From assembly GCA_021740175.1 (NCBI GenBank), contig JAIPAH010000001.1, positions 1 through 59,687 of the forward strand: a stretch of 59,687 nt of DNA. The letters run 5' to 3'. A program made the position numbers and the translations under genes. This document shows, piece by piece, positions 890-38,251 of this stretch. The stretch's first letter is position 1. The number at the start of each line of letters is the position of its first letter. Origin of the DNA: Bacteroidales bacterium. GTDB lineage: Bacteria > Bacteroidota > Bacteroidia > Bacteroidales > JAIPAH01. Under the pieces are notes generated by a model. The model made no database searches. It was not told the origin of the DNA and saw nothing but the letters and a program-made list of their open reading frames with translations.

Positions 890-891
890 AA

Positions 892-1233: not shown

Positions 1234-1237
1234 ATTT

Positions 1238-6791: not shown

Positions 6792-6803
6792 TAAATTAAT
6801 TTT

Positions 6804-7817
6804 ATGGAGACTTATTATACACTACTAAAATCGAACTGGGATACACTGTTAAACTCCATATTGAATGAGTATGATATTTATGCGCCCTTTCATTTCGGAG
6901 AAAGCATTGAGTATTCCATTGTGACAGAAAGTAACGTGAAAAATATTATTTACAACCGGCCCAAACCCTCTACTCCGTTAAAGACTTTTTTCCTTCCTGT
7001 AAAAGAGAATGTAGTTAACCCCTCTAAAAGTGATAAGAAACGCATTGTAATGGGAGCTCCTTCGTGCGATTTAAGCGCCCTTTCCATTCTGGATGAAATA
7101 TACCTGGATAAGGATTATATCGATCCGAATTATTCCGGCCACCGGAAAAACACGCTTCTTATTGGATTTGATTGCCATAGCACCCTTGAGCATTGTCATT
7201 GTACTACTTATGGTTTTAAGCCTTACCCGGAAGAGAATACGGATATTGTGATTTCCTATATCGAAGACAAAATTGTTCTCAACGTAAAAACCGAAGCAGG
7301 AGAGACCTTCAGAAAAAACTGGATAAATAGTTATGAGCGTATTACCGAAAAAGAATTAACCAAACTGAACGATATTCAGACGGATGTTGAGAAGGAGTTA
7401 AATGGTAAAAACGCCGATTTGCCGGATTATCAGCAGACCGGTAAGCTCATAACGGCTTCGGAGGAAGATATATGGCAGCGATATTCCGATACCTGTGTAT
7501 CATGCGGAGCATGCTCGGCGATTTGTCCTACATGCTCCTGCTTTCTCTTTATTGAGCGCCCGCAATTTGAGAAGGTCCGCAGTATCGATACCTGTCAGTA
7601 TCCGGGATTTGAAAGGGTCGCCGCCGGAGAAGATCCGCTAAGGCCCTTATCTAAGAGATTCCGAAACCGCTATATGTGCAAGTACGTCTGGAAACCGGAA
7701 AAATTCGAATCTAAGGCCTGTACAGGCTGCGGCCGTTGCATCGAAGCCTGTATTGGCGATATCAATAAAAACGACCTTTTCAGGGAACTGAATAAAAAAG
7801 AAACCGTTGAAACATGA
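6804..7817 (+). CDS. Iron-sulfur subunit, sulfhydrogenase beta (HydB) / anaerobic sulfite reductase AsrA-like
   Basis: 337 aa with Cys clusters CHSTLEHCHC, CVSCGACSAICPTCSC and CTGCGRCIEAC. It is paired by an ATGA overlap with a HydG/AsrB-like gene. Confidence 0.75.
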   Translation: METYYTLLKSNWDTLLNSILNEYDIYAPFHFGESIEYSIVTESNVKNIIYNRPKPSTPLKTFFLPVKENVVNPSKSDKKRIVMGAPSCDLSALSILDEIYLDKDYIDPNYSGHRKNTLLIGFDCHSTLEHCHCTTYGFKPYPEENTDIVISYIEDKIVLNVKTEAGETFRKNWINSYERITEKELTKLNDIQTDVEKELNGKNADLPDYQQTGKLITASEEDIWQRYSDTCVSCGACSAICPTCSCFLFIERPQFEKVRSIDTCQYPGFERVAAGEDPLRPLSKRFRNRYMCKYVWKPEKFESKACTGCGRCIEACIGDINKNDLFRELNKKETVET

Positions 7818-8641
7818 CCACTGCAACCGTTGACCTATATAAACCGGTTAAAGCTACTCTTACGAAGGTGATTGATGAATCGCCTTCCATTAAAACCTTT
7901 GTGCTTGAACCTGAGGTGGAATTCAGTTTCAAAACCGGGCAGTTTATCCAGCTGTCACTTGAGGGTATCGGTGAGGCTCCGTTTACTCCCTCCTCATCGC
8001 CTTTGGTTAAAGATAGGATTGAAGTAACGATCATGAAAGCCGGGTTTGTCACGGAAAAAATACATAACCTTAAAGAAGGCGCTGTTTTGGGTATCAGGGG
8101 GCCTTATGGCCGGGGTTACCCACTGGAAAAGCTTTACGGGAAGGAAGTGCTCGTGCTGGGTGGAGGATGCGGTTTTGCCCCAATCCGTTCGCTATTGTAC
8201 AACCTTGAAGCGGAAAAGGACAAGATTAAGAAGCTGACCTTCTGCTATGGTTCCAAAACACCCAAAGATTGCATTTACAAAGGATATATCGATCACCTGC
8301 GTTCAGTTGACAAATTTGAGGTATATCGTAGTGTGGATCAGGCCGATGATGAGTGGAACGAAACCGAGGGTGTTGTGACTTGTCTGCTGGATGAGATCAG
8401 CATTAATGTGGAAGAATCTGCTGCAGTGGTTGTCGGACCCCCTATTATGATGAAATTTGGTGTTCAGAAGCTTTTGGATATAGGATATCCCGAACACAAA
8501 ATCTTTCTATCCATGGAGAAAAACATGTCGTGTGCCGTGGGCAAATGCGGTCACTGCATGATGGGTAAATATTTTGTGTGCAAAGATGGGCCTGTGTTTT
8601 CGTATGACGAGATTAAAGATCAACCTGATATCTGGAAATAG
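7814..8641 (+). CDS. FAD/NAD(P)-binding 2Fe-2S oxidoreductase, sulfhydrogenase gamma (HydG) / AsrB / PyrK-like
   Basis: 275 aa with GEAPFTPSS (flavin site), VLVLGGGCGFAPIRSLL (NAD(P) site) and a C-terminal CAVGKCGHCMMGKYFVCKDGP 2Fe-2S motif. Confidence 0.8.
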   Translation: MTTATVDLYKPVKATLTKVIDESPSIKTFVLEPEVEFSFKTGQFIQLSLEGIGEAPFTPSSSPLVKDRIEVTIMKAGFVTEKIHNLKEGAVLGIRGPYGRGYPLEKLYGKEVLVLGGGCGFAPIRSLLYNLEAEKDKIKKLTFCYGSKTPKDCIYKGYIDHLRSVDKFEVYRSVDQADDEWNETEGVVTCLLDEISINVEESAAVVVGPPIMMKFGVQKLLDIGYPEHKIFLSMEKNMSCAVGKCGHCMMGKYFVCKDGPVFSYDEIKDQPDIWK

Positions 8642-8647
8642 GCGATT

Positions 8648-9148
8648 ATGAATAATATTTTGATAGACCTGACAAAATACCGGGAATGCATCAATGAGGG
8701 ATGCGATAAGAAAGTCCCTGAAGGCGTTATTGGTGGAGAACCTGAAACAAACGGGTTGAAGCCACTTCGGGAGCTTGCCGTTTTCACCTATACATGCCGG
8801 CAATGCGAGGATGCTCCCTGCGTTACCGTCTGCCCTGAAGATGCCCTGGAGAAAAATGAGGACGGGATGATTATCCGTTCCACCAATCTTTGTGTTGCAT
8901 GCAAATCGTGTGTTACTATTTGTCCTTTCGGAACGATGATGAGTGATTTTTATGAGTATAAACGAACCGAAAACCTCTATTTCAATCTGAAGGATGAGAA
9001 AGAGAAGGAAAGATTCATCAATGAGAGTCCGGAAGGAACTGTGCAATATACCGATAAGGAAAAAGATGAGGAAAATAATATATACGAATTGATGCCCGGG
9101 ATACTGGTTAAGGATTATCCCTGGGAAAAACTAAAAAAACTGGAATAA
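8648..9148 (+). CDS. 2x[4Fe-4S] ferredoxin-like electron-transfer subunit (HycB-like)
   Basis: 166 aa with CRQCEDAPCVTVCP and CVACKSCVTICP motifs. Confidence 0.8.
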   Translation: MNNILIDLTKYRECINEGCDKKVPEGVIGGEPETNGLKPLRELAVFTYTCRQCEDAPCVTVCPEDALEKNEDGMIIRSTNLCVACKSCVTICPFGTMMSDFYEYKRTENLYFNLKDEKEKERFINESPEGTVQYTDKEKDEENNIYELMPGILVKDYPWEKLKKLE

Positions 9149-9150
9149 CC

Positions 9151-10083
9151 ATGGGTGAACAGTTGTTTTACTTTTTGATATATCCGGGAATGCTCTTTGC
9201 GGGCGTTGTAGGCGGCCTGATTGCCTGGGTGGATCGTAAGGTTACAGCGCGCGTCCAGTTCAGACAAGGCCCCCCTGTATTACAGCCGTTTTATGATTTT
9301 CTGAAATTATTGTTGGTGAAAGAAACTGTTTTGCCAAAGAGGGGATCGGCTATCTTTTTCCTGTTAGCACCCGTACTGGGCTTATTCGGAGCCACTGCCG
9401 CTGCGCTTTTGGTGCTTTTGCCGGCCTTGGGTATTACGGCCGGTTTTCAGGGAGATATCATCGTGCTGTTTTACTTGTTGGCGATTCCTTCGCTGATGTT
9501 TGTTATCGGGGCAATGGCCTCGGGTAATCCACTTTCGGCAGTGGGTGCTTCCCGTGAAATAAAATTGATACTCAGCTATGAGCTGACATTCATGCTTGTT
9601 GTTGCCGGTGTTATTCTTAAGAGCGGACAAACGCTTCACATGGATCAAATTATGATGATGCAGCAATCCCAGGGAGCTTTTATAGGTAGTGTCTCAGGGG
9701 TTTTGCTCTTTATTGCTGCTTTGTTTGCCATCCAGGGAAAAGCCGGGCTTGTACCTTTTGACTTGGCTGAAGCGGAAACCGAGATCGCTGAAGGGGCATT
9801 CATGGAATATTCCGGGACAGCTTTTGCGATCATAAAATATACAAAATATATCCTGCTGTTTATCCTCCCGGTATTTGTTGCTGAGATATTCCTGGGAGGA
9901 CTGACATTTACCGGCATCCACATTTTGTGGTCCATACTTAAGATTGTGCTGGTCCTGGTGCTGATGATTTTGATCCGCAATACCAATCCGCGGGTAAAGA
10001 TCAGCCAGGCCATGCGCTTTTTCCTGTTATGGATGAATCTGTTGGTGATTGCAGGACTGGTGTTACATTATTTAGGACTTTAA
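9151..10083 (+). CDS. Membrane subunit NuoH / HycD / MbhM-like
   Basis: 310 aa, polytopic, with the DRKVTARVQFRQGP motif typical of the NuoH family. Confidence 0.85.
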   Translation: MGEQLFYFLIYPGMLFAGVVGGLIAWVDRKVTARVQFRQGPPVLQPFYDFLKLLLVKETVLPKRGSAIFFLLAPVLGLFGATAAALLVLLPALGITAGFQGDIIVLFYLLAIPSLMFVIGAMASGNPLSAVGASREIKLILSYELTFMLVVAGVILKSGQTLHMDQIMMMQQSQGAFIGSVSGVLLFIAALFAIQGKAGLVPFDLAEAETEIAEGAFMEYSGTAFAIIKYTKYILLFILPVFVAEIFLGGLTFTGIHILWSILKIVLVLVLMILIRNTNPRVKISQAMRFFLLWMNLLVIAGLVLHYLGL

Positions 10084-10093
10084 AATCAGGCTT

Positions 10094-10510
10094 GTGGGAT
10101 TAAAGAGTTTTTGTTTAAAAAAATCATTGTGGGTTTTCCATTTCGGTGGCGCTTCATGTAACAACTGTGACATCGAAATCCTGGATTGTCTGACGCCACG
10201 ATACGACGTGGAACGATTTGGTATTAAACTGGTGGGTAGTCCCCGCCATGCCGATGTTCTCCTTGTAAATGGTTCCATGAACGGGAGGGATAAATCCCGG
10301 CTACTGGATATCTATGAGCAAGTGACGAAGCCGGTTTATGTGGTAGCTTTTGGAGCTTGCGGTTGTACCGGAGGCATATTTGCCGAAGGTTTACCTTTTG
10401 CCGGCCCGGTGGATACCATTATCCCGGTGGACGCTTACATTCCGGGTTGTCCGCCAAAGCCTGAAGCTATGATATCCGGACTAATGAAGTTATCTGAAAC
10501 GATTAAATAA
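10094..10510 (+). CDS. Group 4 hydrogenase small subunit (NuoB / HycG / MbhJ-like)
   Basis: 138 aa with a GTG start. The CNNC, GACGCTGG and IPGCPP cysteines fit a proximal [4Fe-4S] cluster. Confidence 0.88.
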   Translation: MGLKSFCLKKSLWVFHFGGASCNNCDIEILDCLTPRYDVERFGIKLVGSPRHADVLLVNGSMNGRDKSRLLDIYEQVTKPVYVVAFGACGCTGGIFAEGLPFAGPVDTIIPVDAYIPGCPPKPEAMISGLMKLSETIK

Positions 10511-10513
10511 ACT

Positions 10514-10954
10514 ATGGAAAACAACCCATTCATAGAGGAGATAAAAAACCGGTTCGCGGAAAAAATTGTGGAGGTGACAGAGCATAATCCGCTTCGCATC
10601 ACTCTCACGATTGATCCGGCATCTCTGACAGTGCTGGCTGGCGTTTTTCTCTCAGAGAAAAATTTTCGCTTTATCATAGCCAGCGGATTACATACAAAGA
10701 AGGGGTTTGAGATTCTATACCATTTCAGTAATGATAGTGAAGGTCATGTCATCAATGTGCATGTCGTGTTACCCCATGAAAATCCCGTTGTGGATTCACT
10801 GACGAAACTGCTTTCAGGGGCTGAATGGATAGAACGGGAAATCCATGAATTGCTTGGTATCGAATTTAAAGGACATCCCAACATGGTGCCATTGATATCA
10901 GAAGGGAATTGGCCGGAAGGGACATACCCGTATCGAAAAGATTTTAAATCATGA
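10514..10954 (+). CDS. NuoC / MbhK-like subunit
   Basis: 146 aa with the EREIHELLGIEFKGHP motif of the 30-kDa subunit family. Confidence 0.85.
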   Translation: MENNPFIEEIKNRFAEKIVEVTEHNPLRITLTIDPASLTVLAGVFLSEKNFRFIIASGLHTKKGFEILYHFSNDSEGHVINVHVVLPHENPVVDSLTKLLSGAEWIEREIHELLGIEFKGHPNMVPLISEGNWPEGTYPYRKDFKS

Positions 10955-12147
10955 GCAAACAAAAGATCATACCCATAGGACCTTACCATCCGCTTCAGGA
11001 AGAGCCGGAATACTTTAAGCTCTACTGCGAAGGGGAGAATGTGGTTGATATAGAGTGGGAGACCGGCTATAATCATCGCGGAATCGAAAAACTGGCGGAG
11101 GAGAAGACCTTTGAGCAGGTTTTCTTCTTGGTGGAGCGTATCTGCGGTATCTGTTCCACATCGCATCCCTTTGCTTTTGCCAACTGCATGGAAGAGATTG
11201 GAAAGGTGGAAATCCCCGACAGGGCCAAATATATCCGCAGTATTATAGGCGAGCTGGAACGCCTTCACAGTCACCTTCTCTGGGTAGGGCTGGCCGGGCA
11301 TTTTCTGGGTTATGATACGGTCTTTATGTGGGCCTGGAAATACCGCGAACCGGTGCTCGATTTGTTTGAGATTATTTCGGGGAACCGCAACAGCTATGCG
11401 ATGTTTACCATCGGTGGTGTTCGCCGGGATATCGAAAAATCGAAATTCCCGAAAATAAGAGAAGAACTTGAGGGCCTGAAAAAGAAAATAGATCTTTTAA
11501 CCGGGGCAGTAATGGATGATCCGGTGATACACGCCCGGACTAAGGGTGTTGGCGTCATGACACGTGAAGATATTATTGATTACGCTGCCGTAGGGCCTAC
11601 AGCCAGAGCTTCAGGCGTCGAGATCGATGTGCGCAGGGATGACCCGTATGCCGCTTATGATTTGGTGGACTGGAAAGTGATCACCTCCCCGGAAGGGGAT
11701 GTATTTGCAAAAGCCAAAGTGAGACTGCTTGAAATGTATGAGTCTGTAAAAATCATTGAGCAGTGTCTCGATAAAATGGAGAAACTGGAGGAAGGAAATA
11801 TCCAGACAAAAGTATGGGAGATACCCGAAGGGATCGGAATGGGCCATGCCGAAGCACCGCGAGGAGAAGTCTTTCATTTTGTTAAAACCGATGGCTCGAA
11901 TTCCCCGGTTCGTCATAAAATCAGGGCGCCAAGCTATGTCAACATCGCTACGTTTAAGAAATCGTGTGTCGGACAAACCATTTCGGATGCGGCCATTTCA
12001 CTGGCCGCCGTCGATCCTTGCTACTGCTGCACGGAACGGATGGCAGTGGCTTATGACAGTAGTACCGGGAAACGAATCCTTAGCGGGGATGAACTAATTA
12101 AACATTCACAGGCCAGAACAAGAGAACTAAAGAAAAACATGTTATGA
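10951..12147 (+). CDS. Group 4 [NiFe] hydrogenase large (catalytic) subunit (NuoD / HycE / MbhL-like)
   Basis: 398 aa with both Ni-Fe ligand motifs intact: RICGICSTSH near the N-terminus and DPCYCCTER near the C-terminus. A 35-aa tail follows the C-terminal motif. Confidence 0.92.
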   Translation: MSKQKIIPIGPYHPLQEEPEYFKLYCEGENVVDIEWETGYNHRGIEKLAEEKTFEQVFFLVERICGICSTSHPFAFANCMEEIGKVEIPDRAKYIRSIIGELERLHSHLLWVGLAGHFLGYDTVFMWAWKYREPVLDLFEIISGNRNSYAMFTIGGVRRDIEKSKFPKIREELEGLKKKIDLLTGAVMDDPVIHARTKGVGVMTREDIIDYAAVGPTARASGVEIDVRRDDPYAAYDLVDWKVITSPEGDVFAKAKVRLLEMYESVKIIEQCLDKMEKLEEGNIQTKVWEIPEGIGMGHAEAPRGEVFHFVKTDGSNSPVRHKIRAPSYVNIATFKKSCVGQTISDAAISLAAVDPCYCCTERMAVAYDSSTGKRILSGDELIKHSQARTRELKKNML

Positions 12148-14003
12148 CAGACTTGTTAAACATACTCATTTTTCTACCGCTTGCCGTAGGAATACTTTTA
12201 TTCCTTGTACCGGATAAGCTGCGCATTTGGAAAGGGTCAGCTGCTTTTGCGGTAACGTTGTTAGTGCTGTTTGCAGCCATAAGAATTTATGGCGCGGAAG
12301 AGGTTATAGTTCCATTGATTCAACAAGTACAGGGTTCTGCTTTTCTTACACAGTTCACCCATACCCTTCAGGAATTTACGGTGCTTAATATGAATGCCCT
12401 GAGCAAACTTATCCTGCTTTTCCTGGCAGTTTTAGCCCCACTGATAGGTTTGTATTCGATTTACCGGGAAAAGAATGCTGATTTTCCGGCTCATTTTTAC
12501 TCATGGTTTTTGATAACCCTGGGCTGTTCAGCAGGAACCGTATTAGCGGAGAACCTTTTGCTTTTCCTTTTCTTCTGGGGGGTATTGGGTTATACCCTCT
12601 ATAAGCTGATAGCCCAGAATGATGAAGCGAGTTCTGCTTCTGCTAAAAAGACGCTTATTATTATCGGATCGTCCGATGCGTTGATGATCATAGGCATTGG
12701 TCTGATTTGGAATATTGCCGGCACGTTAAATATTAGTGAGCTTTCCATTGCTACAACCGGCGGTCCTGCTGTGATGGCTTTTTTATTACTGGCGATTGGT
12801 GCTTTTACCAAGGCCGGCGCCTTTCCCTTCCACACATGGATTTTGAATTTCACTGAAAAGGCTCACGGATTAAGTTCGGCTTACATGCCCGCATCTTTCG
12901 ATAAACTTATTGGCATTTATTTCCTGGCATTACTTTGCAGCCGCATCTTCGAGCTAAACCAGTGGCTTGTGTTTGCCTTGCTTATCATTGGCGTGTGCAC
13001 CATCATTTTTGCCGTGATGATGGCTTTAATACAGCATAATTTCAAAAAACTGTTAGGGTATCATGCCGTTTCTCAGGTAGGATATATGATAGTAGGGATT
13101 TCTCTGGGTTCACCCCTTGGGATAGCTGCTGGCTTATTCCATATGTTTAATAATGCGGTTTACAAAGGAGGACTTTTTCTTACAGCAGCATCCGTTGAGC
13201 GACGAACAGGGACCAGTGATATTGATAAGACCGGTGGATTAGCTTCCAAAATGCCCCTCACGTTTATTGCAGCTGTTGTTTTTGCCCTGTCTATTTCCGG
13301 AATTCCACCCTTAAACGGTTTTGCTTCGAAATGGATGATTTACCAGGGCATTGTTGATTTCGGACAGCAATCCGGAATAGCCAGTCAGTTATGGATTATT
13401 TGGCTGGCTCTTGCCGTATTCGGCTCTGCCCTGACATTAGCCAGTTTCATAAAATATGTATCAGGAATATTCCTGGGAAGGAAGAAAGAGATTTATGAAA
13501 AAATAAAAGAAGTGGGCCTATTACAGTGGATCCCCATGATGCTATTAGCTGTGATTTGTATTTGGTTTGGAGCCTTTGCCACCGAATATGTGATTAAAGA
13601 GCTGTTCATGCCGGTTTCCGGGACATTCGCTTTCGTTGGTATTTGGGATTCATCACTCTTGTTATGGCTCGTAGTGGCCTCTATTGTTGTAGGATTTTTG
13701 ATTTACTGGATTGGAAGTCTGAAAAATATGCGAAAGGTCGAGCCTTTTATAGGCGGGGAAAAAGCTGATGAGACACAGGGTTATCCGATAACGGGATTTT
13801 ATCATACGCTGCGTAAATCAAGATATCTGGCCTTTTTCTACGCCAGGGCCGAGGAGAAGTGGTTTGACATCTACGACCTTTTTAAAGGCTTTGTGTTGTG
13901 GACCAACAAAGGGTTTAGTACAATTCATACAGGGGTGCTGACAACCTATGCTTTTTGGATATATGGTGGTCTGGCTATAATACTATTGTTGTTGATTTTA
14001 TAG
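12144..14003 (+). CDS. Antiporter-like proton-conducting membrane subunit (NuoL / MrpA / HyfB-like)
   Basis: 619 aa, highly hydrophobic, with GAFPFHTW and HAVSQVGYM-type motifs of the NuoL/M/N family. Confidence 0.85.
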   Translation: MTDLLNILIFLPLAVGILLFLVPDKLRIWKGSAAFAVTLLVLFAAIRIYGAEEVIVPLIQQVQGSAFLTQFTHTLQEFTVLNMNALSKLILLFLAVLAPLIGLYSIYREKNADFPAHFYSWFLITLGCSAGTVLAENLLLFLFFWGVLGYTLYKLIAQNDEASSASAKKTLIIIGSSDALMIIGIGLIWNIAGTLNISELSIATTGGPAVMAFLLLAIGAFTKAGAFPFHTWILNFTEKAHGLSSAYMPASFDKLIGIYFLALLCSRIFELNQWLVFALLIIGVCTIIFAVMMALIQHNFKKLLGYHAVSQVGYMIVGISLGSPLGIAAGLFHMFNNAVYKGGLFLTAASVERRTGTSDIDKTGGLASKMPLTFIAAVVFALSISGIPPLNGFASKWMIYQGIVDFGQQSGIASQLWIIWLALAVFGSALTLASFIKYVSGIFLGRKKEIYEKIKEVGLLQWIPMMLLAVICIWFGAFATEYVIKELFMPVSGTFAFVGIWDSSLLLWLVVASIVVGFLIYWIGSLKNMRKVEPFIGGEKADETQGYPITGFYHTLRKSRYLAFFYARAEEKWFDIYDLFKGFVLWTNKGFSTIHTGVLTTYAFWIYGGLAIILLLLIL

Positions 14004-14106
14004 AAATATACAGACTATGCCTGATATAGTAAAAGATACACTTAGAGCGTGATAAAGAATATGGGACAACAGGTAAACTGTTACAAAATTTAAACGGTAG
14101 AAAACT

Positions 14107-14646
14107 ATGGAAACGCTGCTTTCAATACTGATTGGTTTTATGATTATCGGGGCTTTATATGCCCTGCACGCCAAAGACCTGCTTTCGGCACTGATTGCAC
14201 AGGGCATTGTAGGGTATGGGCTGGTGATTTGTTTTCTGAATTTACGGGCGCCTGATTTGGCTATTGTTCAGATAGTGGTGGAAACCATTACACTGGTCGT
14301 CATGGTAGCTGTGGTTTTAAACTCCAGCAGGAAGGAAGTGAAGGAGAGCTGGAACCGGAATAAGATTCTCAACATCGTGACGTCTGTCATCATTGTGGGA
14401 TTCCTGGTGTACATTTTTGCTTTTATGATTCAGCCACTCCAGCCATTTGGTGATCATTCCATGCGGATGGCCCAGTATTACACCCAAATGGGAGCCGAAA
14501 GCACGGGAGCAGCCAATTTGGTCACAGGCGTCCTGTTTGATTTCAGAGGATATGATACGCTTGGCGAAGCTACCATACTTTTTACAGCAGCGCTGGGAGT
14601 AGTAACAATCTTGCGTTCCAAACCCAAAAAAGAATCGGCATCATGA
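14107..14646 (+). CDS. MnhB-domain / MrpA C-terminal-like membrane subunit (MbhD/E-like)
   Basis: 179 aa, 4-5 TM, with a GYDTLGEATILFTAALGV motif. Confidence 0.6.
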   Translation: METLLSILIGFMIIGALYALHAKDLLSALIAQGIVGYGLVICFLNLRAPDLAIVQIVVETITLVVMVAVVLNSSRKEVKESWNRNKILNIVTSVIIVGFLVYIFAFMIQPLQPFGDHSMRMAQYYTQMGAESTGAANLVTGVLFDFRGYDTLGEATILFTAALGVVTILRSKPKKESAS

Positions 14647-15080
14647 ATGGAATGACGCAAATAGTAAAAAAAGTAACACAGCTAATGAGCGGACTGATAT
14701 TTATGTATGGGCTCTACATTATCACCCACGGACACCTGACGCCCGGTGGGGGATTTGCCGGCGGGGCGATTGTGGCCGGAGGATTTATTCTTTTGATTCT
14801 GGCTTTTGGCAGTAAAGTCATCAGCCTGAGAAAGGAGGAAACCCAAACGTCCATTACCGAAAGTGCAGCCTTGCTTATCGTTATATTACTTGCACTTGCC
14901 GGGTTGTTCCTCGGTGTGCATGTATTTTTCAATAACTATTTACCGCAGGGACAAGTAGGAGAGCTAATAAGTGCGGGTGTTATCCCGATATACAATATTT
15001 TCATAGGGATGGAGGTAGCGGCAGCATTGCTGACGATTTTCCTCGCATTGGTAATTTATAAAGAGGAGGTAGCATCATGA
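14643..15080 (+). CDS. MrpB / MnhB-like antiporter subunit (MbhF-like)
   Basis: 145 aa with a GHLTPGGGFAGGAI motif. Its start overlaps the previous gene as ATGA. Confidence 0.72.
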   Translation: MNGMTQIVKKVTQLMSGLIFMYGLYIITHGHLTPGGGFAGGAIVAGGFILLILAFGSKVISLRKEETQTSITESAALLIVILLALAGLFLGVHVFFNNYLPQGQVGELISAGVIPIYNIFIGMEVAAALLTIFLALVIYKEEVAS

Positions 15081-15415
15081 CCGTTTATATAATGTGCTTC
15101 ATACTGTTTTTGGTAGGACTTTACGGCGTTCTGACGCGGCGTAACATGATAAAGATTGTGATTGGATTTTCGATCATGGAGTTCAGCTGTTTCCTGTTTC
15201 TGGCTATGATAGGCTATATCGAAAACGGATTGGCTCCGATTCTTAAAGAGGAGATGGAAAATCCAGTGTACGTTGACCCGTTGCCGCAGGCGATGGTGCT
15301 GACGGCTATTGTGATTGGTCTGGCCACCACGGCATTGCTTCTGGCTATCGCGATAAGGATTTATAAAAAATACGGAACGTTTGATATCCGCAAAGTGAAT
15401 GAACTAAAAGGATAA
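15077..15415 (+). CDS. MrpC / NuoK-like antiporter subunit (MbhG-like)
   Basis: 112 aa, three TM helices, placed between MrpB-like and MrpD-like genes. Confidence 0.72.
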   Translation: MTVYIMCFILFLVGLYGVLTRRNMIKIVIGFSIMEFSCFLFLAMIGYIENGLAPILKEEMENPVYVDPLPQAMVLTAIVIGLATTALLLAIAIRIYKKYGTFDIRKVNELKG

Positions 15416-15417
15416 TT

Positions 15418-16956
15418 ATGGAACTGATACCGGCTTTATATATCATTTTACCGCTTTTGGGAGCCTTCCTGATACCCATTGTGGGGCATTTTGTGAAAGG
15501 CTTTCAGAAGACGCTTAGTGTTTTGATCACATTGTTCCTTGTTGTTTACAGTGTATGGTTTTACGTAGTGGGTTATGATGCGCCGGCTGTAACTAAAGTT
15601 GGTGGATGGGAAGCGGTGAAAGGCATCCCGATAGCCATTTACCTTGTTTATGACGGGTTAAGCGCTTTTATTCTTCTTACCGTCAACCTGATTGCTTTTC
15701 TCTCCACTTTTTATGCGATGGGATACATCAAGCGGTTTACGGCAGAAAATAATTTTTATGCTCTGCTTTGCCTGATGATTGCAGGTATGAATGGTGTAGT
15801 CCTTTCCGGTGATATCTTTAATATATATGTCTTCCTCGAAATAGCTGTTATCGCCTCTTATGCTTTGGTCGCTTTCGGAACGGAGAAAAGGGAGCTGGAG
15901 GCTTCTTTCAAATACCAGGTTTTAGGGGGTATCGCTTCCCTTCTGATACTTTTTGCCGTCGGATTGCTTTACTGGCAGACCCAGACGCTGAACCTGGCAG
16001 ACATTTCGGCCATACTTCAATACGAGGATCAAAGCACAGCTTTGATATTTACCGAAGTTCTCCTGATAGTTGGATTTGGGTTGAAAGCGGCCATGATACC
16101 GTTTCATGCCTGGCTGCCGGATGCCCATTCCTCTGCGCCTTCACCCATTTCGGCAATGCTGTCCGGGGTTTTGATTAAGGCTGTGGGCGTTTATGCGTTG
16201 ATCAGGTTGTTTTTCAATATCTTCACCATTACCTATGAATTAACTCTGGTAATTATTGTTTTAGGCACGCTGTCCATGGTGATAGGCGTCCTGCTGGCGA
16301 TTGGCCAATGGGACCTGAAGCGCCTGCTTGCCTACCACAGCATCAGTCAGATGGGCTATGTGGTCATCGGTGTAGGCATTGGTATGATGATCATTTTTGA
16401 GGACGGCAACCGAACCGTAGCAGCCCTGTCGATAGCAGGTGGATTGTTCCACCTGATTAATCACGCGGTATTTAAAGGTTTACTCTTTCTGGATGCCGGG
16501 GCGATTGAGTATTTAGCCGGAACAAGGAATTTGAAGGAGTTGGGCGGACTTTCCCGAAAGATGCCGGTAACTTCTTCCACATCGCTGGGGGCTTCTATGG
16601 CTATTTCAGGAGTTCCACCGTTTAATGGCTTTTTCAGCAAATTATTGATCATTATCGCTGCAGTACGGGCCGAGTTTTACCTGCTGGCTGCATTGGCGGT
16701 ATTTGTGAATTTTGTGACACTGGGTTCTTTCATGAAATTTATTCGCTATGCCTTCTTTAACCTGAAAGAATCAGGGGTGAGCCTAATAAAACTCAGGCTG
16801 CCATTTTCCATGAAGTTTTCCATGATCACGATGGTGATTCTCTGCGTGCTGATGAGTTTAATGGTTTTTCCCTTTTTCAGGGAGATATTGCTGAATCCCG
16901 CAGTGGATGTTTTAATGAATACAGGTGAATATGCATCGAAAATAATAGGATCATAA
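15418..16956 (+). CDS. MrpD / NuoM/N-like antiporter subunit (MbhH-like)
   Basis: 512 aa with an AAMIPFHAWLPDAHSSAPSPISAMLSG motif. Confidence 0.88.
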   Translation: MELIPALYIILPLLGAFLIPIVGHFVKGFQKTLSVLITLFLVVYSVWFYVVGYDAPAVTKVGGWEAVKGIPIAIYLVYDGLSAFILLTVNLIAFLSTFYAMGYIKRFTAENNFYALLCLMIAGMNGVVLSGDIFNIYVFLEIAVIASYALVAFGTEKRELEASFKYQVLGGIASLLILFAVGLLYWQTQTLNLADISAILQYEDQSTALIFTEVLLIVGFGLKAAMIPFHAWLPDAHSSAPSPISAMLSGVLIKAVGVYALIRLFFNIFTITYELTLVIIVLGTLSMVIGVLLAIGQWDLKRLLAYHSISQMGYVVIGVGIGMMIIFEDGNRTVAALSIAGGLFHLINHAVFKGLLFLDAGAIEYLAGTRNLKELGGLSRKMPVTSSTSLGASMAISGVPPFNGFFSKLLIIIAAVRAEFYLLAALAVFVNFVTLGSFMKFIRYAFFNLKESGVSLIKLRLPFSMKFSMITMVILCVLMSLMVFPFFREILLNPAVDVLMNTGEYASKIIGS

Positions 16957-16957
16957 T

Positions 16958-17443
16958 ATGAGATTTATAGCGCTTTTTATAATACTCCTGGTTTTCTGGC
17001 TGCTGATAACGTTCAGCCTGACACTGGCGAATATTGTCGTTGGAGCGGTAGCCGCTTTAATCGGCGCCTTACTGTTCGGGAAGTATTTCGTACATAATCT
17101 TTACAAATTCGGGCAGCCAAAAAGGTATTACTGGTTTGTGATTTATCTGGGCATCTTTATCTGGGAGGTGCTGAAAGCCAATTTTGATGTGGCTTACCGG
17201 GTGATACATCCGGCCATGCCTATCAAGCCTGGAATTGTACGGGTACCCCTCGAAGTAAAATCGGAGATAGCCCGCACGATGCTGGCCAATTCGATTACCA
17301 TGACACCGGGAACCATTACGGTAGATATAATAGGCGATGATATTTTCGTGCATTGGATTTATGTGAAATCGGACAAACCTGAAGAATATGCCCGTGAGGT
17401 TTCAGGACGGTTTGAAAAATACATCAAAAAAATATTTGAATGA
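16958..17443 (+). CDS. MrpE / MnhE-like subunit (MbhA-like)
   Basis: 161 aa with two N-terminal TM helices. It lies directly before MrpF/G-like genes. Confidence 0.68.
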   Translation: MRFIALFIILLVFWLLITFSLTLANIVVGAVAALIGALLFGKYFVHNLYKFGQPKRYYWFVIYLGIFIWEVLKANFDVAYRVIHPAMPIKPGIVRVPLEVKSEIARTMLANSITMTPGTITVDIIGDDIFVHWIYVKSDKPEEYAREVSGRFEKYIKKIFE

Positions 17444-17700
17444 TGCTTGAAGTATTGTTATACATACAAATCGGTTTATGCGCTTTTTGCCTTTACCGGA
17501 TTATCAGAGGCCCAACGGTAGCCGACCGGATGGTGGGGATCGATATTTTCGGTATCCTGGTAGTGGGTATTTGCGCCATTATGGCCATAACTACCGATCG
17601 CATGTTTTTGCTGGATATCGGAATCGCCTGGGTCATCCTGAGTTTTATAGGAACACTGACATTAGCGAAATATCTGAGTGGTAAAAAATTAAACGAATGA
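17440..17700 (+). CDS. MrpF / MnhF-like subunit (MbhB-like)
   Basis: 86 aa with an RIIRGPTVADRMVGID motif. Confidence 0.72.
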   Translation: MMLEVLLYIQIGLCAFCLYRIIRGPTVADRMVGIDIFGILVVGICAIMAITTDRMFLLDIGIAWVILSFIGTLTLAKYLSGKKLNE

Positions 17701-17701
17701 T

Positions 17702-18019
17702 ATGGTTAGTACAATTATCATAACGATTGGCATTGCTTTTAACTTCCTGGGCTGCCTGGGGCTGATTCGGTTTCCTGATGTTTACAACAGGCTCCAATCA
17801 GCTACAAAGTGTGTGACCCTGGGTACGTGCAGTATTTTGTTAGGTGTGCTTGTCCATTACGGATTTGTGGAAGTGGGAGTGAAAGCGTTGATAGCCATAC
17901 CATTGCTTTTCTTTGCCGCCACAGTCGGAGCACATGCTTTGGTCAGGGGATCACATATAGCAGGCATTAAGCTTGGTGACAAGAGTGTGAAAGACGATTA
18001 TAAGGAGGTAGAAAAATGA
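17702..18019 (+). CDS. MrpG / MnhG-like subunit (MbhC-like)
   Basis: 105 aa with an LGLIRFPDVYNRLQSATKCVTLG motif. Confidence 0.72.
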   Translation: MVSTIIITIGIAFNFLGCLGLIRFPDVYNRLQSATKCVTLGTCSILLGVLVHYGFVEVGVKALIAIPLLFFAATVGAHALVRGSHIAGIKLGDKSVKDDYKEVEK

Positions 18020-18642
18020 AATATCCGAAACTCAGAGAAGTGAGAGAAGCGGTGACTTCATTGTTTACGGCTCCATATACAACGAAGTTTCCAAAAGAAC
18101 CGCATACACCGTTTGAGGGTTTCAGAGGCAAACCGACCGTTAACGATGAAAAATGCGTTGGTTGCCTGACCTGCTCGAATGTTTGTCCTTCTTATGCGAT
18201 TACGGTTGAAGACGACAAGGAGCGTGGCATCAGGAAGATAGTACGGGATTACGGGAAATGTATTTTCTGTGGGCAATGTCAGAACTATTGCATTACTGGC
18301 GAAGGGGTGATTCTTTCGGATACGGATTACGACCTGTCCACCTTCGACCGAAAAGATGAAAATACGGTCGAGACACAGGAAAAAGAGCTGCTGCTATGCG
18401 AAAATTGCGGAGCGGTCATTACTACCAAAGAGCATATTCAGTTTCTGCATAAAAAGTTAGGCCCCAAAGCATACTCGTCCCTTATTGATTTAAATGCTTT
18501 AAATGATGAGCTGAAACTGTCAAAACCTGGAGAAACGAAGACCGAAGTGACAGAGGGCTTGAGAAGAAAAGACACATTTAAGGTGCTTTGCCCGAACTGC
18601 TTGCGTAAAGTATTGGTGAATAATTTGTTGCCTGATGAGTAA
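18016..18642 (+). CDS. 2x[4Fe-4S] subunit NuoI / HycF / MbhN-like with an extra Cys4 C-terminal extension
   Basis: 208 aa with CVGCLTCSNVCP and CIFCGQCQNYC motifs, plus distal CENCGAV...CPNCLRKV. Confidence 0.8.
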   Translation: MKYPKLREVREAVTSLFTAPYTTKFPKEPHTPFEGFRGKPTVNDEKCVGCLTCSNVCPSYAITVEDDKERGIRKIVRDYGKCIFCGQCQNYCITGEGVILSDTDYDLSTFDRKDENTVETQEKELLLCENCGAVITTKEHIQFLHKKLGPKAYSSLIDLNALNDELKLSKPGETKTEVTEGLRRKDTFKVLCPNCLRKVLVNNLLPDE

Positions 18643-19114
18643 TTGGTTTAATATTGATAGAATTGACTGGAATGCATTGCTTTTTGTCGGTATGGGAAAC
18701 CGCATCAAAAGGGATGACGGTGTCGGCATATATATCAGCGAACAGTTGAAGGAACAAGGGATTGAAGATATAGTAATCGCTGAAAACAGCATTGAAAATT
18801 ATATCGGAAAAATAAATGATCGGCAGGCTAAGACCATTGTGATGATCGATGCTATGGATATGACAGAGGAGCCGGGGTTTTATAAACTTGTTACCGTTAG
18901 CGATGTGCAGAACACAACAACCAACACACATAACTTATCCTTAAGCACGATTTCTTCGTTTTTCGATGCGAAAAATCAGTGGGTTTTAGGTATTCAACCG
19001 GAAGAAGTGACTTTCGGCATGGGGTTAACCCCGCAGGTTCAATCAGCCGCCGATAGAATAGTCAGAGCATTAATAAATAGTTATAATAAAAATCAAAAAA
19101 TACCGAAGCCATGA
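18635..19114 (+). CDS. hycI: Hydrogenase maturation endopeptidase (HycI/HyaD family)
   Basis: 159 aa with FVGMGNRIKRDDGVG, IDAMD and a downstream His. Confidence 0.85.
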   Translation: MSNWFNIDRIDWNALLFVGMGNRIKRDDGVGIYISEQLKEQGIEDIVIAENSIENYIGKINDRQAKTIVMIDAMDMTEEPGFYKLVTVSDVQNTTTNTHNLSLSTISSFFDAKNQWVLGIQPEEVTFGMGLTPQVQSAADRIVRALINSYNKNQKIPKP

Positions 19115-19515
19115 AAAATTATTATTGCCCAATCTGTCGAGCGCATTTAAGGGTTGGAGATAACATTGTTCTTGCGGCAAAGAGCCCTTATAACGAAAAA
19201 GGATTGATTTTTCTCAATCCGGAAGTAGGAAACTATTCGAAAGAAACGCATCCCGATTTTGAAATCAGGGAGGGGGAGGAGTACAAATTTTATTGTCCGG
19301 TTTGTCATGCTACCCTCAACGACAAGGAAAAGAAAAATCTTGTAAAAATGAATATGGAAGAAGAAGGCACACACTATGATTTTTACTTTTCCAACATTGC
19401 CGGTGAAGAGGTGACCTACAGAATCAGCGAACAGGAAGTGGAAAAGTACGGATATCATAAGGACCGTTATGAAAAGTATTTTGACCTTCCGGATGAATAC
19501 AAAAAATACTTGTAA
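19111..19515 (+). CDS. Small zinc-ribbon-like protein of unknown function
   Basis: 134 aa with two CPxC pairs (CPICRAHL, CPVCHATL). Its start overlaps hycI as ATGA. I recognise no family. Confidence 0.6.
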   Translation: MKNYYCPICRAHLRVGDNIVLAAKSPYNEKGLIFLNPEVGNYSKETHPDFEIREGEEYKFYCPVCHATLNDKEKKNLVKMNMEEEGTHYDFYFSNIAGEEVTYRISEQEVEKYGYHKDRYEKYFDLPDEYKKYL

Positions 19516-19518
19516 GAT

Positions 19519-20196
19519 ATGGAGCAACAGTTAATCGTATTGCTTACCACGGCAGCTGGTTTGGGCTTTCTCCACACAGTGCTTGGCCCGGACCATTATG
19601 TTCCGTTCATTGCCATCTCCAAAGCCCGGCAATGGACGTTAAAGAAAACCGCCTGGATTACCGGAGTTTGTGGGCTTGCCCATGTGGGTAGTTCAGTGGT
19701 TATCGGCATTTTCGGGATTGGCCTGAGCATTAAACTGGCTCAGCTGGAAGCGTTTGAAGCCTTGCGCGGCACTATCACCGGCTGGCTGATTATCGCCTTC
19801 GGACTGGCTTACCTTGTCTGGGGCATCCGTAAAGCCGTGACTTATCATCAGCGAAAGAGAGTTATGGAAAGCCTGGAAAAGGAATCGGGAGCGTCTTCTA
19901 AAAAATCCTACAAACAGCTCATCCCGTGGATGTTGTTTGTGGTATTTATTTTCGGCCCCTGCGAACCTTTGATTCCGGTATTGATGTTTCCCGCCGCCGA
20001 TGTCAGCATTGCCGGAATGATCATGGTAGCTGCGGTTTTCGGACTGGTAACCATAGGAACCATGCTGCTGTTAGTTTTAGTACCTCAATACGGTATTCAA
20101 AAGCTCCGTTTCTCCGGTTTGAAACAATATGGCCACGCCGTGGCCGGTGCTCTGATTCTTTTCTGCGGTGTAGGGATTCAGTTTCTGGGGCTGTAG
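19519..20196 (+). CDS. Putative Ni2+/Co2+ transporter (NicO/RcnA- or HupE/UreJ-like membrane protein)
   Basis: 225 aa, about 6 TM, with LHTVLGPDH and FGPCEPLIP motifs and a charged central loop. It is the last gene of the hydrogenase cluster. The family assignment is tentative. Confidence 0.45.
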   Translation: MEQQLIVLLTTAAGLGFLHTVLGPDHYVPFIAISKARQWTLKKTAWITGVCGLAHVGSSVVIGIFGIGLSIKLAQLEAFEALRGTITGWLIIAFGLAYLVWGIRKAVTYHQRKRVMESLEKESGASSKKSYKQLIPWMLFVVFIFGPCEPLIPVLMFPAADVSIAGMIMVAAVFGLVTIGTMLLLVLVPQYGIQKLRFSGLKQYGHAVAGALILFCGVGIQFLGL

Positions 20197-38245: not shown

Positions 38246-38251
38246 TATCTC

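Follow-up and report, generated by a model that had tools for sequence, protein, structure and literature searches.

The Hun hydrogenase, a membrane-bound [NiFe] enzyme joined to a sodium/proton antiporter, was described from genomes and named by Glass et al. 2021 (bioRxiv 10.1101/536078) as a 16-gene operon, hunA-P, carried by Atribacteria, Firmicutes, Omnitrophica, Elusimicrobia, Bacteroidetes and Kosmotoga. Carriers in culture include Labilibacter sediminis CG51, Saccharicrinis sp. GN24d3 and Kosmotoga. The same authors remarked on the large subunit with its CGIC/CYCC motifs and on the AsrA/AsrB-like lead genes, and assumed ferredoxin to be the electron donor, a model that was also stated for the Hun/group 4g family by Williams et al. 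Related clusters have been reported from Saganbacteria, and in some relatives of Hun a molybdopterin protein is found between HunB and HunC. Hun-type enzymes are placed by HydDB in group 4g (Mrp-linked), as is the hydrogenase of Ca. Saelkia tenebricola, from which one relative of HunA comes.

Here, a 59,687-nt stretch of DNA from a Bacteroidales bacterium (the window) was analysed. Positions 227-20196 hold a complete hydrogenase locus, and the 16 genes at 6804-18642 are an intact copy of the Hun-type operon hunA-P (Table 1). In the order and content of its genes, this copy agrees one for one with the operon of Glass et al., including the AsrA/AsrB-like HunAB and the diagnostic CGIC...CYCC motifs of HunG. 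The novelty of the cluster implied in a preliminary description of this DNA was thus not upheld, and the NAD(P)H reading given below is a reinterpretation of the electron donor in the known Hun family, not the discovery of a cluster.

Layout of the locus, maturation genes and Rex

In the ORF listing, positions 6804-20196 are tiled by 19 ORFs, all co-directional on the + strand. The tight packing described earlier was confirmed, but the earlier count of 20 genes was not: no 20th gene was found in this interval by the ORF listing, and the gap at 14004-14106 contains no more than an 11-codon ORF. The eight ATGA overlaps of stop and start codons that were reported earlier (at 7814, 10951, 12144, 14643, 15077, 17440, 18016 and 19111) are all present, and the remaining junctions are of 1-10 nt, together with one 8-nt overlap and that 103-nt gap. 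Every part of the proposed six-part anatomy was recovered by Pfam and NCBIfam searches. The cluster is also, as claimed, without fdhF, cooS or a ferredoxin oxidoreductase gene, and neither a PFOR nor a ferredoxin gene was found within it. The gene of the 134-aa CxxC protein comes after hycI in most related Bacteroidota loci (tblastn), and the DsbD_2-family gene, the last co-directional one, was found in only 4 related loci. The candidate terminator was taken from a consensus scan in which the counts of terminator-type hairpins were not above those of shuffles.

The maturation genes for the Hun hydrogenase are those of the rex-hypFCDEAB string, which is divergent from hunA and has rex as its first gene. 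For hypE, an internal ATG is the probable true start, given the ~100-nt overlap of the ORF with hypD. The Rex gene and the Rex operator described as adjoining the cluster are both present, according to the NF003996 score and the consensus scan, respectively, and TTGTGAATATTGTCACAA is the one site in the whole window that departs from the Rex consensus at fewer than 3 positions. Of 58 related Bacteroidota loci, 54 have a divergent rex no more than 1.2 kb from hunA. In 47/61 related loci, the rex-hunA spacer carries Rex boxes (at most 2 mismatches), which are grouped around -24 and -210. In an Omnitrophota locus, hunA is directly preceded by a Rex gene. Rex had been taken to fit an NADH-linked role; the linkage held, but as evidence it is weaker than was assumed, since in Caldicellulosiruptor bescii the targets of Rex repression include a ferredoxin-dependent membrane-bound NiFe hydrogenase and PFOR. 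The linkage is therefore supportive of such a role, not diagnostic of the substrate.

Table 1. Features of the hydrogenase locus (positions in the window)
Feature	Position	Strand	Evidence
hypB (Ni-inserting GTPase)	227..889	-	Pfam cobW/HypB/UreG 1.6e-22
hypA, 113 aa	892..1233	-	MHE... N-terminus, CxxC...CxxC; place between hypE and hypB
hypE (ORF limits)	1238..2341	-	Pfam AIRS, AIRS_C
hypD	2244..3329	-	Pfam HypD 1.1e-147
hypC, 76 aa	3326..3556	-	starts MCLSIP; sequence and position
hypF carbamoyltransferase	3547..5994	-	Pfam Acylphosphatase, zf-HYPF, Sua5_yciO_yrdC, HypF_C, HypF_C_2
rex, redox-sensing repressor	5963..6577	-	NCBIfam NF003996, 187 bits (equivalog cut-off 138)
Rex operator (predicted), TTGTGAATATTGTCACAA	6774..6791		1 mismatch to TTGTGAANNNNTTCACAA; 13 nt 5' of hunA ATG
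hunA, sulfhydrogenase-beta/AsrA-like Fe-S protein	6804..7817	+	Fer4_22 6e-22
hunB, sulfhydrogenase-gamma/AsrB-like FAD, NAD(P) and [2Fe-2S] protein	7814..8641	+	FAD_binding_6, NAD_binding_1, DHODB_Fe-S_bind
hunC, HycB/CooF-like 2x[4Fe-4S] connector	8648..9148	+	Fer4_11
hunD, NuoH/MbhM-like membrane anchor	9151..10083	+	NADHdh 1.5e-62
hunE, NuoB-like small subunit, GTG start	10094..10510	+	Oxidored_q6 1.3e-30
hunF, NuoC-like	10514..10954	+	Complex1_30kDa 1.8e-23
hunG, [NiFe] large subunit	10951..12147	+	NiFeSe_Hases, Complex1_49kDa
hunH, MbsH'/MrpA-N/NuoL-like antiporter subunit	12144..14003	+	Proton_antipo_M
hunI, MbhD+MbhE (MrpA C-terminal part)	14107..14646	+	Pfam MbhD, MbhE
hunJ, MrpB-like	14643..15080	+	MnhB 8.9e-25
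hunK, MrpC/NuoK-like	15077..15415	+	Oxidored_q2 7e-30
hunL, MrpD/MbhH-like antiporter subunit	15418..16956	+	Proton_antipo_M 1.3e-65; 6cfw_H 277 bits
hunM, MrpE-like	16958..17443	+	MNHE 1.9e-45
hunN, MrpF-like	17440..17700	+	MrpF_PhaF 2.1e-13
hunO, MrpG-like	17702..18019	+	PhaG_MnhG_YufB 1.9e-21
hunP, NuoI/HycF-like 2x[4Fe-4S] subunit	18016..18642	+	Fer4 families
hycI-type large-subunit maturation endopeptidase	18635..19114	+	Pfam HycI 2.6e-11; TIGR00072 84 bits (cut-off 47)
134-aa protein, two CxxC pairs	19111..19515	+	sub-threshold zinc-ribbon matches only
225-aa DsbD_2-family membrane protein	19519..20196	+	DsbD_2 2.6e-06
Candidate operon terminator, 11-bp-stem hairpin and T-rich tail	20478..20502	+	consensus scan only

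The HunAB pair, the hydrogenase core and the antiporter subunits

HunA and HunB have their nearest solved relatives in the beta and gamma subunits, respectively, of sulfhydrogenase I (SHI), the NADPH-linked enzyme of P. furiosus, matched nearly full-length (HunA to 9nez_B, 3.9e-31, residues 4-321; HunB to 9nez_C, 1.2e-48). These and the profile matches agree with the earlier placing of the two lead genes in the sulfhydrogenase beta/gamma (AsrA/AsrB) family. The ShyB/HydB/AsrA models match HunA with scores far under the cut-offs, and the AsrA and AsrB equivalog scores are both below theirs (119 vs 323 bits and 215 vs 289 bits, respectively). The motifs GEAPFTPSS, GGGCGFAP and CAVGKCGHC...C were all found as reported, and the flavin/NAD(P) motifs are intact and not degenerate: across 71 sequences, with distant phyla and SHI gamma among them, essentially no variation is seen in GEAPFTPSS, KxGxVT, GGGCGxAP, GPP and CxxGKCGHC...C. 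The cues for nucleotide preference differ, as the conserved basic residue of the HunB beta2-loop (CYG[S/A][K/R]TP, with no acidic residue) aligns with the Arg of the NADPH-using SHI gamma and Rex senses NADH.

In 62 of 65 Bacteroidota loci, the genes for HunA and HunB precede that for the large subunit; full colinearity of the 16 hun genes was seen in 44 of 45. The order hunA-hunB-hunC heads the operon in six loci outside the Bacteroidota (two from Omnitrophota, one each from Bipolaricaulota and Spirochaetota, and two from unassigned lineages), where HunA is only 31-43% identical and the core and Mrp genes follow as far as each contig reaches; in a seventh, on a short contig (L085), hunA comes after Mrp/NuoI genes instead. 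The pair is thus conserved in synteny with the Mrp-hydrogenase genes. In a further locus (L086), a HydBG-like pair is partnered with a molybdopterin enzyme and no hydrogenase is present, in keeping with a portable pyridine-nucleotide module.

Both Ni-Fe motifs named earlier (RICGICSTSH and DPCYCCTER) are present in HunG and essentially invariant in 84 sequences; the protein ends in a C-terminal tail of 35 aa. HunG was matched to MbhL (6cfw_L) with 290 bits and to HycE (7z0s_E) with 283 bits, and falls outside the characterised ferredoxin, formate or CO subgroups. HunE has the four Cys for one [4Fe-4S] cluster in SCNNC, GACGC and GCPP. The best solved matches of HunC are the HycB-type connectors of HDCR (HycB4/HycB3, 7qv7) and FHL (HycB, 7z0s_B), and HunP, with a Cys-rich C-terminal extension, is closest to HycF of FHL (7z0s_F, 5.5e-20; MbhN 6cfw_N, 5.1e-15). 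In FHL, subunits of the HycB/HycF type form the electron link between the hydrogenase and the subunit that oxidises the substrate; in Hun, the distal module has no recognisable substrate site other than that for FAD/NAD(P).

Glu-TM5, Lys-TM7, Lys-TM8 and Lys-TM12 are aligned and conserved in HunL. HunH (best solved matches 6u8y_X and 6z16_A) keeps the Lys of TM7, TM8 and TM12 but has, in 84 of 85 sequences, Gly in place of the canonical Glu of TM5, so HunH may not pump in the usual way.

Electron donor and direction of coupling

It is plausible that the Hun complex links NAD(P)H to H2 across an ion gradient, a credible reinterpretation of the donor to which a probability of about 0.55 is given; both the pyridine-nucleotide coupling and the ion pumping are what we infer from sequence. 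The NAD(P)H reading withstood all of the computational checks made here. NAD(P)H would be bound by HunB at the FNR-type FAD/NAD(P) domain, and electrons would leave FAD for the [2Fe-2S] cluster of HunB, continue through the [4Fe-4S] clusters of HunA and the 2x[4Fe-4S] of HunC and then of HunP, and reach the Ni-Fe site of HunG by way of the single [4Fe-4S] in HunE. HunD and the Mrp module would couple the movement of H+/Na+ to the reaction NAD(P)H + H+ <-> NAD(P)+ + H2.

The published ferredoxin model, by which PFOR-reduced ferredoxin would donate to HunABC (an Fe-S wire only) and the H2-evolving, ion-pumping enzyme would export H+/Na+ as P. furiosus MBH does, is possible but rather unlikely. 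Its reaction is exergonic and agrees with every characterised Mrp-linked relative, the core is about equally close to the ferredoxin-dependent MbhL and to HycE, and the Rex control in C. bescii is a precedent. However, it leaves unexplained the FNR-type FAD/NAD(P) domain, with dinucleotide motifs essentially invariant across several phyla, and the NADPH module of SHI as the source of the closest characterised homologues. Moreover, MBH takes ferredoxin directly at MbhN, without need for HycB, beta and gamma subunits, and the lack of a ferredoxin or PFOR gene in the cluster also speaks against this model.

An improbable alternative is a three-way redox hub, in which the complex would take electrons from ferredoxin at an exposed Fe-S cluster of HunA, HunC or HunP and would exchange them with the H+/H2 couple as well as with NAD(P)+/NAD(P)H, so that an ion-translocating ferredoxin:NAD(P)+ oxidoreductase and a hydrogenase would be combined in one enzyme, functionally between MBH and Rnf. 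A pyridine-nucleotide site and many surface-candidate Fe-S clusters are indeed both present, and the molybdopterin protein of some relatives shows that the arm is open to more than one partner; yet no ferredoxin-docking feature was recognisable, HunB resembles the non-bifurcating NfnA/PyrK type of subunit with no bifurcating-type flavoprotein present, and the scheme is more complex than the data require. That HunAB reduces a sulfur compound or other acceptor, with H2 oxidation or the ion gradient coupled to that reduction as in the activity ascribed to sulfhydrogenase or in AsrAB feeding sulfite reductase, is very improbable despite the homology to these proteins, given that an AsrC/sirohaem subunit is absent from the cluster, the equivalog scores are under the cut-offs and, unlike MBS/Mbx, HunG keeps all Ni-Fe ligands and has a dedicated HycI protease.

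For the NAD(P)H-H2 reading, the conversion of NADH to H2 was calculated from E0' values of -320 and -414 mV to cost about +18 kJ/mol under standard conditions and to be near equilibrium at 1-10 Pa H2. The link to a beta-glucan PUL suggested earlier amounts to proximity only (PUL start at 34658, 14 kb off). Because of the energetic cost, the likely role of the complex in this fermentative Bacteroidales would be the ion-gradient-assisted disposal of glycolytic NADH as H2, with expression induced once a high NADH/NAD+ ratio is sensed by Rex; at high H2, the complex could also run in reverse, making NAD(P)H from H2 and exporting ions. As the forward reaction is endergonic at standard state, such a complex would consume an ion gradient and not make one, which would be unusual among group 4 enzymes.

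Gene content and surroundings of the hydrogenase locus

The interval 6804-20196 was tiled in the ORF map by 19 co-directional ORFs on the plus strand, the first 16 of which are designated hunA to hunP (6804-18642). In the preliminary description 20 tightly packed genes had been counted; the packing and the common direction stood, but the count did not, and the search of the ORF map of 6804-20196 for a 20th gene found none, the 103-nt gap at 14004-14106 holding an 11-codon ORF only. The eight ATGA overlaps described there were all present in the sequence. The remaining junctions were spaced by 1-10 nt or overlapped by 8 nt, with 14004-14106 as the sole sizeable gap. This non-coding gap, between hunH and hunI, measures about 13 nt in a 96%-identical relative (L001), as judged from the spacing of tblastn matches.

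Every part of the complex listed in the preliminary description was recovered by the Pfam and NCBIfam scans. HunA was detected as a Fer4_22 protein with sulfhydrogenase beta and AsrA as the top models, and HunB as a protein with FAD_binding_6, NAD_binding_1 and DHODB_Fe-S_bind domains and with AsrB and sulfhydrogenase gamma as the top models. They are followed by a HycB-like 2x[4Fe-4S] protein (HunC), by NuoH-, NuoB- and NuoC-like subunits (HunD, HunE and HunF, respectively) and by the 398-aa large subunit HunG with RICGICSTSH and DPCYCCTER. Downstream of HunG lie a NuoL/MrpA-N-like subunit (HunH), MbhD+MbhE (HunI), MrpB, C, D, E, F and G (HunJ to HunO), a NuoI/HycF-like subunit (HunP) and a HycI protease. 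The four Cys Ni-Fe ligands in the NuoD-like large subunit, the NuoB-like small subunit with one [4Fe-4S] cluster and the NuoH-like anchor were all present.

Two small genes stand 3' of hycI (Table). The first, for a CxxC protein, was found at this place in most related Bacteroidota loci, with 45-59% identity, and may encode a maturation accessory; the second, for a DsbD_2-family protein, was found in only 4 of 80 related loci, and a metal-transport role for it is only a guess. The minus strand carries rex, which runs into the start of hypF, and then hypC, hypD, hypE, hypA and hypB as far as 227. Since this rex-hyp string adjoins the hydrogenase gene string, 227-20196 was regarded as a self-contained hydrogenase unit. 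For internal promoters, a scan of 5900-21400 for sigma-70 promoters and intrinsic terminators was uninformative, because the counts were not above those of shuffles; the consensus used does not cover Bacteroidota promoters.

Features of the locus and of the surrounding sequence
Feature	Position	Strand	Remarks
rex	5963-6577	minus	score above the NCBIfam equivalog cut-off
CxxC protein, 134 aa	19111-19515	plus	two CxxC pairs, without family assignment; ATGA overlap with the hycI stop
DsbD_2-family membrane protein, 225 aa	19519-20196	plus	N-terminal LHTVLGPDH motif; final gene of the string
N6_N4_Mtase DNA methylase	31092-32153	minus	MerR-type HTH domain fused at the N-terminus
Beta-glucan utilisation locus	34658-51080	minus	two GH16 (one with a T9SS sorting tail), CBM-containing T9SS protein, PKD protein, SusD, SusC, GH3, Y_Y_Y hybrid two-component regulator
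FMN riboswitch	52484-52606		118.5 bits against a gathering score of 66.2; upstream of the riboflavin operon
Riboflavin operon ribD, ribE, ribBA, ribH	52713-56174		
DUF805b RNA motif	56981-57013		40.5 bits against 35.6; just 5' of ORF 57034-57903

The beta-glucan locus, whose glucans had been put forward as the fermentation substrate behind the hydrogenase, is indeed present, but it begins 14 kb downstream and has no demonstrated link to the hydrogenase. Elsewhere in the window, the 289-aa ORF behind the DUF805b motif had no Pfam match, and the same was true of a 301-aa ORF adjoining the methylase gene with respect to any family.

Assignment to the Hun family

The genes at 6804-18642 were compared with the published description of the 16-subunit "Hun" Ni-Fe hydrogenase-Na+/H+ antiporter supercomplex, named by Glass et al. 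2021 (bioRxiv 10.1101/536078), and the same 16 genes were found in the same order: AsrA-like, AsrB-like, Fe-S connector, NuoH, NuoB, NuoC, large subunit, NuoL-like, MbhD/E, MrpB, C, D, E, F, G and NuoI-like. In that work HunAB were likened to AsrA/AsrB, the hydrogenase module was defined as HunEFGP and the membrane modules as HunDHILK and HunIJKLMNO, and HunG was reported to have the unusual ligand motifs CGIC...CYCC and to be called group 4g by HydDB, yet to stand apart from other 4g sequences. In the present analysis the L1 CGIC and L2 CYCC motifs were essentially invariant among 84 related HunG sequences. There is no structural difference between the two, the AsrA/AsrB-like pair, the HycB-like connector and the full Mrp set being common to both; extra in the window copy are the downstream hycI, the genes for the CxxC protein and the DsbD_2-like membrane protein, and the divergent rex-hyp operon.

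Related clusters have been described more than once. In Saganbacteria, asrA, asrB and cooF beside a Mrp-linked group 4 hydrogenase were reported by Matheus Carnevali et al. 2019, with the donor given as unknown; this RX5A cluster resembles the window in its cooF-, asrA- and asrB-like genes and its Mrp-linked group 4 hydrogenase, but it has a molybdopterin oxidoreductase that the window lacks. The Elusimicrobia clusters, grouped here with the Saganbacteria one as 'Mbh-Mrp-oxidoreductase' clusters (PMC6349859; bioRxiv 10.1101/765248), were described only as a related type with an oxidoreductase of unknown function. "Group 4g, Mrp-linked" hydrogenases, with ferredoxin assumed as the donor, were reported by Williams et al. 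in Omnitrophota and Cloacimonadota, and a HunA relative from Ca. Saelkia tenebricola, whose hydrogenase was published under this designation, heads the same operon. Upstream of hun in that genome (L088:1240-5966), an 822-aa GAPDH-domain protein and PFK are encoded. Given the match with Hun and these descriptions, the window cluster was assigned to a known, biochemically uncharacterised family, and the novelty implied in the preliminary description did not hold, the cluster type, the AsrAB-like genes and the occurrence in Bacteroidetes having been published already. The family was absent from a review of complex-I-like enzymes, no related cluster was found in the Pelobacter carbinolicus genome paper, and the group 4 clusters in the Staphylothermus and Asgard papers differ from Hun.

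Other identities were rejected. For a sulfhydrogenase or an anaerobic sulfite reductase, the scores fell below the cut-offs and the catalytic partners were absent: against the group 3b (HydABDG/ShyABCD) models, ShyB gave 136 versus 690 bits, HydB 122 versus 750, ShyC 174 versus 600 and HydG 168 versus 650, and the large subunit is NuoD-like, that is, group 4; against the NCBIfam equivalogs of AsrABC, AsrA gave 119 versus 323 bits and AsrB 215 versus 289 bits, and no AsrC-like (sirohaem) gene was detected in 6804-20196. Judged from these comparisons of sequence, HunA and HunB are homologous to group 3b sulfhydrogenase subunits, yet the cluster is not a member of that group. A formate hydrogenlyase (FHL) or CO-dependent hydrogenase of groups 4a-c was rejected on the absence of fdhF and cooS; HycB- and HycF-like subunits are present, and no molybdopterin or CODH gene was found among the scanned window ORFs of at least 150 aa.

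The family is abundant, with 581 HunG relatives in the genome-collection scan, the best 80 of which were all from Bacteroidota, and with HunA matching, in an exhaustive search at E<=1e-30, 248 representatives of the library's clusters at 50% identity. The operon range published for hun covers Atribacteria, Firmicutes, Omnitrophica, Elusimicrobia, Bacteroidetes and Kosmotoga, the last a cultured carrier (bioRxiv 10.1101/536078). Labilibacter sediminis CG51, among the best 80 of the 581 HunG relatives, and the isolate Saccharicrinis sp. GN24d3, among the protein matches, are also cultured carriers. The synteny check proposed in the preliminary description came out in its favour, hunA and hunB preceding hunG in 62 of the 65 Bacteroidota loci with enough sequence (tblastn); in the other three HunB was present and HunA gave a weak match only. 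All 16 genes were colinear in 44 of 45 complete Bacteroidota loci (tblastn). Seven distant contexts with HunA 29-43% identical were inspected (two Omnitrophota, one Bipolaricaulota, one Spirochaetota and three unassigned contigs), and in six of them hunA-hunB-hunC came first, with core and Mrp genes following up to the end of each contig, the Spirochaetota contig stopping at nuoB; in the seventh (L085, a short contig) hunA comes after the Mrp and NuoI genes.

Some loci carry additions. A stand-alone 151-aa protein with a cyclic-nucleotide-binding domain (Pfam cNMP_binding, 6.2e-10) is encoded between hunB and hunC in L011 (7206-7661), and by gene spacing such an insert, which may be a regulatory subunit, occurs in 22 of 65 related Bacteroidota loci and is absent from the window. 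In one metagenomic lineage (L084:4221-5696) HunA has an N-terminal response-regulator receiver domain, with two more receiver-domain genes upstream.

Lead pair, Fe-S arm and membrane arm

Among solved structures, HunA and HunB came closest to the beta and gamma subunits, respectively, of the NADPH-linked sulfhydrogenase I (SHI) of P. furiosus (9NEZ), matched at 3.9e-31 and 1.2e-48 and nearly over the full length, and these matches are decisive for the predicted folds. When 71 HunB-type sequences were aligned, among them those of distant phyla and SHI gamma, GEAPFTPSS (flavin), KxGxVT, the dinucleotide motif GGGCGxAP, the C-terminal GPP and the [2Fe-2S] cysteines were essentially invariant. The flavin and NAD(P) motifs had been listed in the preliminary description, and their possible degeneration, named there as a ground for refutation, is contradicted by this invariance. 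The feature set of the FNR type (PyrK/HydG/AsrB fold), namely the FAD motif, GxGxxP, GPP and Cx3GxCGxC...C, is complete in HunB, which is predicted on these motifs to be an FNR-type NAD(P)H flavoprotein. In the beta2 loop CYG[S/A][K/R]TP, the conserved basic residue aligns with an Arg of SHI gamma and an acidic residue is absent, which hints at NADPH as the cofactor of HunB; Rex, by contrast, senses NADH. The FAD, NAD(P), 2Fe-2S and 4Fe-4S motifs are common to HunA/HunB and SHI (PDB 9NEZ/9NF0; group 3b, cytosolic); however, the hydrogenase partner is a membrane-bound group 4 core in the window and a group 3 alpha/delta dimer in SHI, and HunA and HunB scored far below the SHI-type equivalog cut-offs of NCBIfam.

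At L086:7138-10999 the pair recurs at 26% identity, with HydG-like and HydB-like genes on either side of a split molybdopterin oxidoreductase and no hydrogenase, which suggests a soluble molybdoenzyme that is NAD(P)-linked and uses the same module. On this ground the HydBG-type pair was regarded as a portable module.

HunC was nearest to HycB-type connectors (of HDCR and FHL) and HunP to HycF of FHL; the peripheral arm therefore has the FHL layout, with HycB and HycF connecting a distal substrate module to the small subunit. E. coli FHL-1 (PDB 7Z0S; group 4a) shares with the window this HycB-HycF-type arm, the C-terminal tail of the large subunit and the HycI protease, and differs in its distal module (FdhF for formate, as against the flavoprotein pair), in HycE being a NuoC-NuoD fusion and in the absence of the Mrp E/F/G set. 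The 35-residue tail of HunG past CTER aligns with that of HycE, in keeping with its removal by the HycI encoded in the operon, a cleavage that we infer. P. furiosus MBH (PDB 6CFW; group 4d, ferredoxin-dependent, Na+/H+-translocating) has the catalytic core and the Mrp-like membrane arm in common with Hun, with MbhL, MbhH and MbhN ranking first or close to first among the solved matches of HunG, HunL and HunP, respectively; it is, however, without HycB-, beta- or gamma-like subunits, has one antiporter-like subunit only and carries CLSC in L2 instead of CYCC, the solved MbhL chain ending at this motif. A place of HunG inside a characterised subgroup had been named in the preliminary description as part of a ground for refutation; by bit scores HunG lies outside both groups, with similar values for MbhL (290 bits) and HycE (283 bits).

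The Mrp set in the window is complete by Pfam, with MrpA split in two genes and B, C, D, E, F and G. In HunL, Glu-TM5, Lys-TM7, Lys-TM8 and Lys-TM12 were all kept. HunH (12144-14003) was most like MbsH' and MrpA and kept the Lys of TM7, TM8 and TM12; at residue 146, Trp-Gly stands in place of the canonical TM5 Trp-Glu of MrpA/MbsH', with Gly in 84 of 85 Hun sequences and Glu only in the Bipolaricaulota locus L089. The NuoH/B/C/D/I/K/L-type membrane scaffold is shared with complex I (NADH:quinone oxidoreductase), and both enzymes would feed NADH into it if Hun is coupled to NAD(P)H; the NADH modules are unrelated (NuoEFG in complex I, a putative one of an FNR-type flavoprotein with an Fe-S protein in Hun), and the acceptors are quinone and H+ at the Ni-Fe site, respectively.

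Electron donor, energetics and significance

NAD(P)H coupling of the window hydrogenase, as read from its sequence, was given a probability of roughly 0.55. This hypothesis passes every computational test applied and departs from the published Hun model, in which ferredoxin is the donor; in the literature searched, whose coverage is incomplete, only ferredoxin-based models and no proposal of NAD(P)H coupling for a group 4 or Mrp hydrogenase were found. The observations of the preliminary description stood except for the gene count, and its interpretation was supported in part.

Ferredoxin as the only donor, in line with that model and with ferredoxin-dependent MBH, is less likely. The sole recognisable substrate site of the distal module in the window is the FAD/NAD(P) pocket, and the evidence from the window family favours NAD(P)(H). 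A hub accepting both donors is more doubtful still.

The adjacent rex gene and operator had been taken as pointing to an NADH-linked role. Both are present: the Rex regulon is indicated by the Rex protein and by a predicted operator in the promoter region matching TTGTGAANNNNTTCACAA, the box TTGTGAATATTGTCACAA at 6774-6791 lying 13 nt 5' of the first ATG as the sole window match with fewer than three mismatches. Rex was divergent and adjacent in 54 of 58 Bacteroidota loci, and Rex boxes occurred in 47 of 61 rex-hunA spacers at two recurrent positions. The pointer itself carries less weight than that: in Caldicellulosiruptor bescii, Rex acts as a repressor of PFOR and of a membrane-bound NiFe hydrogenase that depends on ferredoxin, so Rex is not a substrate indicator. 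In the Omnitrophota contig L083 (4247-9799), rex stands directly upstream of hunA, co-directional and beside Wood-Ljungdahl genes (FTHFS, RACo and a CbiA-family ATPase).

The energetics were computed from standard potentials of -320 and -414 mV. By this calculation NADH-driven H2 formation requires +18 kJ/mol when H2 stands at 1 bar and releases energy, about -5 to -10 kJ/mol, at 10 to 1 Pa, and one ion moving inward down 150 mV (~14.5 kJ/mol) would permit H2 evolution from NADH to ~0.2 bar. In magnitude this span is comparable with that of MBH; its sign is the opposite. Consumption of the gradient to vent NADH as H2 would be the most plausible direction, and at high H2 the oxidation of H2 would build the gradient. 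With NAD(P)H as the donor, Hun could tentatively be viewed, at somewhat under even odds, as a reversible NAD(P)H:proton oxidoreductase on a complex-I/Mrp scaffold, with a sulfhydrogenase-type flavoprotein module unrelated to NuoEFG recruited as the electron input.

H2 formation from NADH in strict fermenters and syntrophs, which runs against an unfavourable potential, is usually explained by electron-confurcating [FeFe] hydrogenases or reverse Rnf. Cultured carriers of hun exist, so that the donor question is open to direct experiment. Should ferredoxin prove to be the donor, Hun would be a Mrp-linked hydrogenase of the ordinary sort, and its flavoprotein would lack an explanation. If NAD(P)H coupling is true, a membrane hydrogenase taking NAD(P)H directly, balanced by an ion gradient, would add a third site of coupling and would carry a second, independent NADH module on the complex-I scaffold; Bacteroidales common in sediments and digesters, Omnitrophota, Bipolaricaulota, Atribacteria and Kosmotoga could in that case draw on ion-motive force to vent glycolytic NADH as H2, or could instead gain it from H2 oxidation, with no need for ferredoxin or electron confurcation.
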